This document shows, in pieces, positions 16,194 to 22,780 of a stretch of DNA of 64,000 bases. The number at the start of each line of letters is the position of its first letter. Position 1 is the stretch's first letter. The notes under the pieces were generated by a model. The model did not search any database, was not told where the DNA came from, and saw nothing but the letters and a program-made list of their open reading frames with translations. Both the position numbers and the translations under genes were made by a program. Source of the DNA: Acidobacteriota bacterium (lineage in GTDB: Bacteria; Acidobacteriota; Thermoanaerobaculia; Multivoradales; JAHEKO01); assembly GCA_029862975.1 (NCBI GenBank), contig JAOTWP010000003.1:5904-69903 (forward strand). The letters run 5' to 3'.

Positions 16194-17375
16194 TCACGGC
16201 ACGGTCTGCGACCAGCGGGAGGTGTCGCCGGACTCGAAGCCGTCTTCGAAGATCGTGAGCGGCAGCCTGAGCTCGAAGGCGCCGACGTCGCAGTCGGCGG
16301 TGCCGTCGTGGTCGCCGTCGAACGGCCGGCCAAGGCCGCGCTGATCGAGGTCGGGGCACAGCGGCGTCTCGGCGGTGTCGATCGCGGGGCTGCCGGTGAG
16401 GAGCGCGTGGGTGTCCGTCTCGCCGCCGTTGTCGGCGAGCGGGCCGAGCTCGGGGCTGGGCACGCCGACCTGGTCGGAGGCGGCGTCCAGGCCGCAGGTG
16501 TCGCCCGGGCTCTCGAGATTGCCGCCGTTGCTGGTGGCCACGGCCCCGTCGCAGGAGCCGGCGAGCAGCGTGTTGGTCACCGCCGTGGTGCCGCCGTTGT
16601 GCAGCGCGCTGCCGGCGCCCGCGCTGTTGCCGGTGATCGTCGCGCTGAGCACGGTCATGCTCGTGCCGCCGAGGTTGTAGAGCCCGCCGCCGGCGCCGCC
16701 GCCGTCGACGGCATTGCCCGAGACGGTCGAGTTCTGGACGAACGACGTGCCGTGGTCGTCCATCCCGCCCCCGTGGTCGGCGGTGACGTTGCCGGCGAGG
16801 GTCGAGTCGAGGATGAAGATGTCGTTGTCGTTGCGCACGCCGCCCCCCGGGCCGCCCGCCGTGTTGCCGGAGATGGCGCATCCGAGGACGGTCAGGGTAC
16901 CGGCGTTGCGGATGCCGCCGCCGTTGCCGCCGCCCGCGTCGCCCCCGCGCAGGGTCACCCGCGAAACGGCGGCGGGCACGTTCGCGACGTCGAGCACCCG
17001 GTCGATCCCGTCGGCGTCGATCACCGTCGAGCGCGCCCCGGCGCCCTCGAGCGAGACGGAGTCCGTCAAGTCCAGGTCGCCGCTCGCGGCCTGGTCCTCG
17101 CCGCTGCCGGCGATCGCCAGGACGTAGATCCCGGCCGGCACGGCAACCACGTCCGTGATCCCCGGGCCGGGCTGCCCGGCCGCGCAGCCATCGACCGGGG
17201 CGTTCGTGTTGGCCGCCACGATGGCTTCGCGTAGGGTGCAGTTGCCGTTGGGCGGCTGGTCGAGATCGTCGAAGGTCGAATCGACGACGATGGTGGCGGC
17301 GGCGGCCGGACCGGAGACCGCACAGGCGACGACGCACAGACCTCCGGCGACGCGTCGCAGGCGGGTTGCACTCAT
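16194..17375 (-). CDS. secreted right-handed beta-helix protein with a CSLREA-like N-terminal motif (choice-of-anchor-Q-like) and a distinctive C-terminal tail
   Basis: AGGAGG RBS and signal peptide (CVVACAVSGPAAAAT). NGNCTLREAIVAANTN resembles the CSLREA motif. It has repeated GGG(I/L)xNxGTLT...SGN PMP-like units and ends IFEDGFESGDTSRWSQTVP. Confidence 0.8.
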   Translation of the reverse strand: MSATRLRRVAGGLCVVACAVSGPAAAATIVVDSTFDDLDQPPNGNCTLREAIVAANTNAPVDGCAAGQPGPGITDVVAVPAGIYVLAIAGSGEDQAASGDLDLTDSVSLEGAGARSTVIDADGIDRVLDVANVPAAVSRVTLRGGDAGGGNGGGIRNAGTLTVLGCAISGNTAGGPGGGVRNDNDIFILDSTLAGNVTADHGGGMDDHGTSFVQNSTVSGNAVDGGGAGGGLYNLGGTSMTVLSATITGNSAGAGSALHNGGTTAVTNTLLAGSCDGAVATSNGGNLESPGDTCGLDAASDQVGVPSPELGPLADNGGETDTHALLTGSPAIDTAETPLCPDLDQRGLGRPFDGDHDGTADCDVGAFELRLPLTIFEDGFESGDTSRWSQTVP

Positions 17376-21535: not shown

Positions 21536-22780
21536 TCAGGGCACCGTCTGCGACCAGGCTGAGGTGTCGCCCGACTCGAAGCCGTCGGCGAACAGGCGGC
21601 GGAAGCAGCGGGCGAAGACGTCGCTCTGACCGCCTGCAGCGCCCTGACTCCAGACGACGATGAACTCGCGGGCGTCGGCCCCGCGAACCGCGAGATCGGC
21701 GGGGGAGGGGTAGGGGTACGGGCTGGTCGCGATCTCGAACGGCGGCCGGAGCTCGTTGTCGCGCGAGCCGAGCCGGCCCTTGATGTCGAAGGCGTACTGG
21801 CCGTCGCCGTAGGCCACGACGAAATCGCCGGTCGCCGTCACGTCGATCGCGAACTCGCCCGTGTCCTCCGCCAGACGCACCCGCGGTCCCAGGCCCCCGG
21901 CGCCGGTTGCACGCGAGACCACGTCCGAGCGTTCGAGGTGGATCTGCTCCCGCCAGACCACCCGGAAGCTGTTCTCCTCGTCGGCGGCGATCTTTGGATG
22001 GTAGGAAAAGACGCCGTGGAGCGGCGGCCCGACCTCGAAGGCGGGCTCGAAGTCCCCTTGTGCCGCCACGAAGCGGCGCCCCCAGACCTCGGGCCAGGTT
22101 TCTTGCTGCTCCCAGGTCACGAAGTAGTCGCCGTTCGGGGCCAGGCCGGCCGGCGCGATGTCGTTCGAGCTCGCCTGGTCGGTGACACGGACCCGGGGGC
22201 CCGCCGGCTTGCCGTCGGCCTCATAGCCGCGGGTCCACACCGAGCGCCCGGTACCCTCGACGGTCATCCACGAGGCGAGGAACGAGCCCTCCGCGGCGAC
22301 GCTCACGGAGCCCCCGCCGAACGGCTCCGCCGCGGCCGGCTCGATCACGAACTCGTCGTCGATGGGACCGGGGCCGAGGAACCGGCGCCCCACCAGACCC
22401 TGGTCGCTGCTGCGCCAGACGGCGACGACCCGGCCCGACGCGTCCACGCCCACGTCGGGGGCGTACTGCTGGCCGGTGGTGTACTGGTTGAGCTGCACCT
22501 CGTTCGACAGCGGCTGGCAGTCGCCGTCGTACCAGCGGCCGAACACCCCGGACTCGTCGCCATCCTGCCCGCCCGAGGATCTCCAGACGGCGACGAAGCT
22601 CCCATCCCCCGACGAGGCGACTCGCGCCCAACTCTGATGGTCTGGCGTGTACTGGTTGACCTGGAACGGATCGGTCGCGGGCGCCTGCGGCACAGCCGCC
22701 CGCGGCGCGAAGGTCAGGAGCGCGACCAGCACGATGGTCAGGACCCGAACGGGGGGCCGGGCGCCGGCCCAAGCAGTCAC
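21536..22780 (-). CDS. secreted repeat protein (about seven ~50-aa propeller-like repeats) with the same C-terminal tail as 16194-17375
   Basis: It has a signal peptide (VRVLTIVLVALLTFAPRAAVPQA). The repeated unit is QVNQYTxxxQ...G(S/D)F(V/L)(A/V)VW...G(V/L)(F/V)GRRF. It ends LFADGFESGDTSAWSQTVP. Confidence 0.75.
   Translation of the reverse strand: MTAWAGARPPVRVLTIVLVALLTFAPRAAVPQAPATDPFQVNQYTPDHQSWARVASSGDGSFVAVWRSSGGQDGDESGVFGRWYDGDCQPLSNEVQLNQYTTGQQYAPDVGVDASGRVVAVWRSSDQGLVGRRFLGPGPIDDEFVIEPAAAEPFGGGSVSVAAEGSFLASWMTVEGTGRSVWTRGYEADGKPAGPRVRVTDQASSNDIAPAGLAPNGDYFVTWEQQETWPEVWGRRFVAAQGDFEPAFEVGPPLHGVFSYHPKIAADEENSFRVVWREQIHLERSDVVSRATGAGGLGPRVRLAEDTGEFAIDVTATGDFVVAYGDGQYAFDIKGRLGSRDNELRPPFEIATSPYPYPSPADLAVRGADAREFIVVWSQGAAGGQSDVFARCFRRLFADGFESGDTSAWSQTVP

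Follow-up and report, generated by a model that had tools for sequence, protein, structure and literature searches.

Two exported proteins encoded in a 64,000-nucleotide stretch of the Thermoanaerobaculia-type genome of a sediment-dwelling member of the Acidobacteriota (positions 5904-69903 of contig C48; this whole stretch is referred to below as the window) end in closely similar 19-residue tails, and analysis of the complete assembly (G000; 4.49 Mb in 309 contigs, 71.6% GC, 93% complete) revealed that these are two representatives of a real terminal tag. The tag is selected at the protein level and is carried by approximately 90-100 exported, unrelated proteins, which amounts to about 2.5% of the proteome. 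It corresponds to the detached N-terminal leader (positions 2-19) of an unannotated ConA-like jelly-roll domain of about 200 residues, termed here the X domain. The genome also encodes a small secreted protein that consists of the X domain without its leader, and we tentatively propose, at chances that we put a little below even, that this stand-alone domain binds the tail and that the two constitute a docking or sorting system of two parts.

Both window tails are located on the minus strand, at the positions given for them in the original prediction, which had been made from the letters of the window. Tail 1 comprises 19 codons (IFEDGFESGDTSRWSQTVP, 16197-16253) and a stop codon (16194-16196), and tail 2 comprises 19 codons (LFADGFESGDTSAWSQTVP) and a stop codon within 21536-21595. 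A six-frame scan of the genome for the pattern GFE[STA]G[DN]...W...[VIMF]P followed immediately by a stop codon identified 84 open reading frames (ORFs) that have the tag as their end, both window genes included, with the consensus [ILV]F.DGFESGDTSAWS.TVP-stop; the proteome-wide motif search that the original prediction had proposed was therefore positive. With a 24-column profile of the tail (A2) and a cut-off of E<=0.01 the number of copies rises to 102, and the window tails are matched at C48:22100-22165 (E 4.5e-14) and C48:27442-27510 (E 6.7e-15), respectively. The copies are spread over 60 or more contigs. They do not fall at random internal positions: 84 of 94 matches to a looser form of the motif are found at the identical distance from the stop codon, exactly 16 residues after the Asp, and in about 100 other metagenome-assembled genomes (MAGs) the stop codon lies within 8 residues of the Trp in 124 of 143 copies.

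The sequence logo of the tails is near-invariant from position -19 to position -1, with no conservation upstream; the information content is below 0.8 bits at -20, exceeds 3 bits at -19 and stays high through the terminal Pro. Residues F-18, D-16, G-15, F-14, E-13, G-11, W-6 and P-1 are invariant or nearly so, and while several of these positions were preset by the selecting regular expression, a MAFFT alignment of 60 full-length proteins displays the identical invariant columns. The tail (IFADGFESGDTSAWSATVP) has a mean Kyte-Doolittle hydropathy of 0.11, no hydrophobic run and a net charge of -3, and ends in T-V-P, in agreement with the earlier description of it as lacking both a transmembrane (TM) helix and a basic cluster.

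Averaged over all pairs, the tails have a nucleotide identity of 0.787, close to the value of 0.754 expected from the peptide and codon usage; in the 57 nucleotides upstream this identity falls to 0.35. Synonymous codons in the tails vary like those in the gene bodies, and selection therefore acts on the peptide. The two window tails had been reported to share about 50 of their final 57 nucleotides; they are nearly identical, although the count is 47, compared with 42.9 expected from both peptides and the codon usage of the genome. Taken alone, these 47 shared positions could reflect a recent local gene conversion between the two genes, but the two tails are not the only copies, there being 84-102 dispersed across the genome, and the similarity is bounded precisely by position -19 on one side and the stop codon on the other. 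Because protein conservation and codon bias account for how alike the tails are at the DNA level, the gene conversion null is rejected, as is a DNA repeat, and we attach virtually no probability to a conversion event as the origin of the window pair.

The tag is not restricted to C-termini. Three G000 proteins and locus L169 have it immediately behind the signal peptide, and it is located between domains in a few others, which indicates that it is an autonomous terminal module and not a strictly C-terminal one; the original proposal of a putative sorting or secretion tag is otherwise supported. Four tagged ORFs, on contigs C145, C248, C255 and C291, run 20-45 Pro-rich residues past the usual stop, probably as a result of lost stops, frameshifts or assembly errors. 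Loci that were also singled out in G000 are a 233-residue ORF on contig C175, C239:23002-23718 and the region of C303 near 57.8-59.7 kb, together with L169.

The tagged proteins have little in common apart from the tail and export. As judged by a crude home-made scorer, not SignalP, a signal-peptide-like N-terminus is present in 60 of the 68 tagged ORFs whose N-terminus lies within the contig, compared with 37% of all crude genes. The set of 60 complete tagged proteins (A1) carries 65 different Pfam families, including FG-GAP, Kelch, BNR and PQQ-type propellers, PKD, peptidases of the S8, M28 and M36 families, multicopper oxidase and MauG-like di-haem peroxidases, and when these 60 proteins are aligned the mean column identity outside the tail is 9%. 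Choice-of-anchor B and Q proteins are represented among the cargo, and the tagged M36 proteins match the NCBIfam models for M36 peptidases dependent on type IX secretion (T9SS), on myxosortase and on rhombosortase. Among 120 homologues of the first window protein, what comes behind the conserved CD.GA.E end of the Q domain differs: 52 possess a DGFE tail, about 15 have tails with a TM segment and Arg (PEP-CTERM, IPTL-CTERM and Cys type), some have dockerin-like repeats, which occur only in some homologues from other organisms, and some have nothing.

The tail was never matched by an NCBIfam or Pfam model in scans of the two window proteins and the 60 tagged proteins. G000 was found to contain no tripartite tail family (PEP-CTERM, IPTL-CTERM); exosortase genes were outside this search. 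The models for the T9SS C-terminal domain (CTD), TIGR04183 and PF18962, have no match in the window proteins, in line with the original view that the tail is not such a domain, and are not among the 25 most frequent families of the 60 tagged proteins; a Pfam scan of the window proteins likewise gave no match to dockerin (PF00404). Among the three genes on either side of each tagged gene (+-3), no untagged family is over-represented, and the islands of tagged genes on contigs C167, C200, C289 and C117 have no common partner.

An exact degenerate-DNA scan with one genome per species located the long form of the tail mainly in MAGs labelled Thermoanaerobaculia, Thermoanaerobaculales, 'Holophagae' or Acidobacteriota, with isolated matches in Myxococcota-type, Gemmatimonadota, Kangiella and Acidimicrobiia MAGs. 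Tag counts are patchy among 40 relatives of G000, ranging from 40-147 in many near-complete genomes through some intermediate values to none in others (e.g. G014, G017, G030, G031 and G040). The residues that follow the Trp are lineage-specific, being TVP in G000 and VVED, STG or nothing elsewhere. In a sample of 151 genomes from the phylum, no genome outside the order to which G000 belongs has more than 2 copies of the tag.

In relatives with few tags, the motif is often the start of a domain of about 198 residues, the X domain, which recurs at the C-terminus of unrelated proteins. A hidden Markov model of this domain matches every G000 tag at positions 2-19. Alignment with hhalign places the tag on X positions 2-19 (probability 98.1, E 1.4e-13) and the family of the candidate partner (A3) on X positions 22-202 (probability 99.7, E 7e-27), and tag and partner tile the X domain without overlap. 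The X domain belongs to no Pfam family. Only its motif segment gives sub-threshold matches (E ~0.04, 14 bits against cut-offs of 26-30), to PF02018 (CBM_4_9; positions 3-47) and PF14099 (Polysacc_lyase; positions 1-37), and it weakly matches the starts of two CBM22 modules in PDB 4xup; the remainder of the domain matches nothing. Fusions in cis of cargo, motif and X domain occur in the relatives and once in G000, where C99:9366-11162 encodes a 599-residue exported HExxH metallopeptidase-like protein ('FAHEIGHNFGFHHD') with the motif and the X domain. In addition, contig C239 of G000 encodes one stand-alone protein composed of motif plus X domain. When a natural full X domain (A4) is modelled with AlphaFold2 from a shallow alignment of 8 sequences, the result is all-beta, with a pLDDT of 85.3 and a pTM of 0.85 outside the leader. 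A different arrangement is observed in a small protein family of the tag-poor relatives (L178, L180, L186, L193 and L197; G020, G022, G013 and G015), whereby the motif is followed by a basic, Cys-containing extension of about 25 residues with the pattern '...FADGFESG[DN][TV]SAWSYTR.DF.NKKK....C...'.

The candidate partner in G000 is a protein of 220 residues (C303:46422-47081) in which the signal peptide (MTKTFRVLSLLGAAALISMAASA) is followed, two residues on, by the X domain from position 22 to its end at position 202, that is, everything but the tag. Homologues with identical architecture are present in 11 other genomes, and this small, motif-less architecture with a signal peptide was seen in 18 of 19 inspected matches from tag-rich genomes (those with 20 or more tags). 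The family comprises 39 database clusters of 203-234 residues, all of which are annotated as 'hypothetical protein' and have no Pfam domain; the motif is present in none of the 39, and all possess a signal peptide and the sequence [ST]L[AST]V[TN]..G.NF[GK]L. The locus is present in DNA sediment metagenomes only. AlphaFold2 confidently models the partner as a 14-strand beta-sandwich (pLDDT 82.6, pTM 0.80), the nearest solved folds of which according to Foldseek are ConA-like jelly rolls, namely PL36 and PL7 alginate lyases, ulvan lyase, TtX122, GH16 and the BoNT HCN lectin-like domain, with E values of 1e-6 to 1e-4 and TM scores of ~0.5 for the partner and X-domain matches. This lectin-like sandwich contains no known catalytic motif, and the modelled fold hints at possible glycan binding.

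There is no universal neighbour of the partner gene. Paralogous sulfatase-fold lipoproteins ('VDTLRADH', with the C-terminal '...L[RE]ALGY[LV]') flank it in 6 of 12 genomes, which represent three families (loci L219, corresponding to G000 C303:37001-57000, L220, L221, L224, L226 and L228), and the synteny is different in family f4. In genus g1 the gene for the sulfatase-fold lipoprotein is located 4-150 bp downstream of the partner gene on the same strand; G000 encodes 21 paralogues. These neighbours may provide a link to the modification of envelope glycans or lipids.

Tag and partner are distributed together. When the G000 partner protein was used as query against 41 related genomes, a match was obtained in 19 of the 20 tag-rich genomes and in none of the 11 tag-free ones (Fisher p 1.4e-7). 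Extension to 201 genomes of the order gave 116 with both tag and X domain, 4 with the tag only, 6 with the X domain only and 75 with neither (p ~1e-42, uncorrected for phylogeny), and in the five families that include both states (f1, f7, f8, f10 and f11) tag and X domain are always concordant. Three tag-rich genomes (G035, G097 and G134) have no X domain even at E<=10, a number compatible with the 4.3 such misses expected from incompleteness. A replicate across the phylum gave no independent test, because the tag expansion and the X family are restricted to one order.

Gene order provides further evidence of an association. In G008, G024, G020, G022, G051 and G114 the partner gene has a tagged gene beside it or directly upstream, and since the upstream cargo is of a different type in different genomes, this adjacency does not represent one inherited pair. 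In G008 the partner gene is embedded among four tagged genes. G020 and G022 contain 7 and 5 copies of the motif genome-wide, respectively, and in each of them the immediate upstream neighbour of the partner gene is a tagged gene that stops a few bases short of it; the partner gene encodes a signal peptide of its own. One-to-one adjacency in some genomes and one-to-many relationships in others is also the pattern of pairing described for small C-terminal sorting signals and their enzymes by Haft et al. (bioRxiv 10.1101/2023.06.07.544157), who defined eight attributes of such signals. The tag possesses attributes 1, 2, 3, 6 (signal peptides on most proteins that bear it), 7 (bearers that are often unrelated apart from the signal) and 8 (another signal or none in homologues from elsewhere) and lacks attributes 4 (the TM segment) and 5 (the basic cluster).

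In the system that we propose, cargo would leave by Sec export with the 19-residue tail at its terminus, and the tail would then be bound by the stand-alone X domain, either through addition of the W-x-x-V strand and leader or as a peptide in a groove. The lectin-like partner may serve as a shared adaptor by which cargo is retained, docked or passed on at the cell envelope, which would make the arrangement a one-to-many, non-covalent counterpart of sortase-type sorting or of cohesin-dockerin docking. Its fullest version would be proteome-wide 'split-domain' docking in Thermoanaerobaculia-type Acidobacteriota, whereby about 100 exported enzymes and adhesins would bear only the leader of a lectin-like jelly roll, to be captured in trans by one secreted, leader-less jelly roll that links the cargo to the cell surface or to a step in export. 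This is conceivable, at chances distinctly short of even.

Several observations weigh against binding of the tail by the partner. The partner has no anchor of its own and is a single gene that faces about 100 types of cargo; copies of the motif are also found directly behind signal peptides and at interdomain positions, and in other lineages the tail goes no further than the Trp or ends shortly beyond it. Part of the co-occurrence is trivial, since X domains that bear the motif count on both sides, and the co-occurrence is phylogenetically non-independent because the tag expansion and the X family are confined to one order. G035, which has 138 tags, is 97% complete and has no detectable X domain, remains a possible true counter-example. 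Structure prediction is also unfavourable to the most literal form of the proposal. In the A4 model the F.DGFESG core (residues 1-12) is unstructured, with a pLDDT of <50, and W16-R20, which includes the W-x-x-V part, forms a weak strand (pLDDT ~56), while the X domain folds equally well in AlphaFold2 without the tag segment. Because the motif core is disordered in cis and the partner folds without the leader, the sandwich appears to be complete in the absence of the tag, and strict donor-strand complementation is therefore less likely than peptide binding or edge-strand addition; the strict 'missing strand' model is weakened accordingly.

Another, unseen reader of the tail is a serious rival to the X-domain partner. 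The tag would then be a real sorting or secretion signal recognised by a different machine, for example an outer-membrane translocon, a C-terminal processing enzyme or a PDZ-type reader, and the X protein would co-occur through shared ancestry. The six attributes shared with known sorting signals, the position of the motif core outside the X-domain fold in the AlphaFold models, the tag-rich genome G035 without any X domain and the anchor-less partner are all compatible with such a machine, but no candidate for it was found; secretins are present in all 41 genomes regardless of tags, canonical GspD is present only in G000, and no gene family is enriched beside tagged genes. Moreover, it leaves unexplained both the exact tiling of tag and partner and the operon-like pairs of tagged gene and partner in genomes with 5-7 tags, and we consider it somewhat unlikely. 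A specific version, in which the tail would serve as a signal for type II secretion and be recognised by the PDZ domain of GspC, would draw on the ability of PDZ domains to bind C-terminal peptides, on cargo typical of type II exoproteins and on the presence of secretin genes. However, secretin-family genes occur in all the tag-free genomes too, TIGR02517 exceeds its cut-off in just 1 of the 41 genomes, conservation across lineages does not extend to the residues that follow the Trp, and N-terminal copies of the unit exist, which leaves this version very improbable; type II secretion genes do not discriminate, as every one of the 41 genomes has secretin matches and G000 alone has a bona fide GspD. 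That single canonical GspD (C64:3313-5004, L175; TIGR02517, 446 bits) may represent a horizontal acquisition or a contaminating contig.

It is also conceivable that the tail has no addressing role and is a vestige of truncated C-terminal jelly rolls, or a domain-boundary or linker element spread by domain shuffling. The motif is indeed the usual start of CBM4/9/22- and lyase-type jelly rolls, to judge from the weak matches to PF02018, PF14099 and 4xup, and in some proteins it is located at domain borders. Vestiges would decay, however, and would not have uniform ends, whereas the 84 independent tails are near-invariant over 19 residues and stop at one fixed position with synonymous sites left free. 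The copy number is near all-or-none (~40-147 against none in near-complete genomes, with some intermediate), and the tail fills the anchor slot of the choice-of-anchor and M36 families. A vestigial origin is thus improbable.

With regard to the window itself, cargo gene 1 (16194-17375, minus strand; 1857 homologues, many of which have other anchors in place of the tag) encodes a protein of 393 residues composed of a signal peptide, a CSLREA domain (CSLREA_Nterm, TIGR04214), a right-handed beta-helix, a choice-of-anchor Q domain and the tag. The predicted Sec signal peptide (MSATRLRRVAGGLCVVACAVSGPAAAA) corresponds to 17295-17375 (minus strand), its end being approximate as it was assigned by the crude scorer. 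The choice-of-anchor Q domain (NF041518, E 7.8e-23, 80.5 bits against a cut-off of 25) occupies residues 308-369 (16269-16454, minus strand), directly upstream of the tag, and confirms the anchor type to which this protein had been provisionally assigned. Cargo gene 2 (21536-22780, minus strand) encodes a protein of 414 residues with a signal peptide predicted by the same scorer (VTAWAGARPPVRVLTIVLVALLTFAPRAA, 22694-22780, minus strand, end again approximate), 'QVNQYT...VAVW' repeats and the tag; it matches no family in the NCBIfam and Pfam scans, and the bodies of the two proteins are unrelated, as originally described. It has a tagged paralogue on contig C75. The repeat family to which it belongs ('FQVN.YT...Q..P.VA....G.FVVVW', for which there is no Pfam model) has paralogues on C75, C145, C248, C94 and C140, and the tag is present in 8 of its 11 clustered members. 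The genes between the two tagged genes are OsmC-like, helicase-like and FdhD-like by sequence and none is related to sorting; the expectation that no partner would be encoded there was thus correct, the candidate partner being located on another contig (C303).

Comparison with established systems reveals partial resemblances to several of them. In common with the tripartite signals (LPXTG/sortase, PEP-CTERM/exosortase, GlyGly-CTERM/rhombosortase and MYXO-CTERM/myxosortase), the tag is found at the extreme C-terminus in dozens of copies with a near-invariant signature, on unrelated cargo with signal peptides whose homologues have other signals or none in the same slot; its lineage distribution is patchy, and it stands in a many-to-one relationship to a single co-occurring gene that is sometimes beside a target gene. 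In contrast to these signals, it has no TM helix or Arg/Lys cluster and is acidic with a Pro end, it shares homology with a segment of the domain family to which the partner itself belongs, it is not known to be cleaved, and the partner is a soluble lectin-like beta-sandwich rather than an intramembrane or membrane-anchored protease or transpeptidase. Cohesin-dockerin pairs likewise employ a small module, located for the most part at the C-terminus, that is shared by many secreted enzymes of unrelated families, with a beta-sandwich receptor as proposed here, and dockerin-like repeats fill the tag slot in homologues of the first window protein. However, the tag has 19 residues, as opposed to the duplicated Ca-binding F-hand of about 70 residues (~22 residues each) in dockerins, has no PF00404 match, and its receptor would be a single stand-alone domain without a visible anchor and not a scaffoldin with multiple cohesins. 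The T9SS CTD (TIGR04183/PF18962) also marks many Sec-exported enzymes and adhesins in diderm bacteria, and M36 peptidases carry either signal according to lineage, but this is a folded Ig-like domain of about 80 residues in Bacteroidota, with a dedicated translocon and cleavage by PorU, whereas the tag comprises 19 residues and is found in Acidobacteriota.

Donor-strand complementation and pre-split domains (chaperone-usher pilins; SEA/GAIN) offer the precedent of a beta-sandwich without one of its terminal segments, which a second polypeptide provides, with both cis and split forms. For the tag such a mechanism is only hypothesised; the donor would be contributed by about 100 different proteins rather than by a neighbouring subunit, and AlphaFold suggests that the sandwich is complete without the motif core. 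Finally, the '..FE.G....W..' pattern is found at the start of the fold in the jelly rolls of CBM4/9/22 and of polysaccharide lyases, which the ConA-like X domain resembles, but there the segment continues into the domain, whereas approximately 87-90% of tag copies meet a stop codon.

A full-text literature search for the tail motif found no paper, and a search for literature on secreted-protein signals of Thermoanaerobaculia also found none. The tail, the X domain and the partner family are covered by no Pfam or NCBIfam model, and the leader-less partner, its co-occurrence with the tag and its adjacency to tagged genes are new. If split-domain docking is confirmed, it could be a categorically new mechanism among C-terminal sorting and docking tags: a sorting principle without a protease and without a membrane anchor in the signal, in which the tag is a piece of the receptor's fold. 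The candidate partner makes the question of what reads the tail directly testable with one small soluble protein and one 19-mer peptide, and if the interaction is real it would place a new docking logic beside sortase-type sorting, T9SS and cohesin-dockerin, and provide a compact natural pair of peptide and domain for protein display.

Acidobacteriota are abundant in soils and sediments and have large repertoires of secreted enzymes. To our knowledge, the sorting of their exoproteins after Sec export is largely unknown. The tagged 2.5% or so of the proteome includes peptidases, oxidases and adhesin-like repeat proteins, on which no family database annotates the tag, and with the tag as a simple rule, the surface or secreted proteome can be predicted across an entire order.

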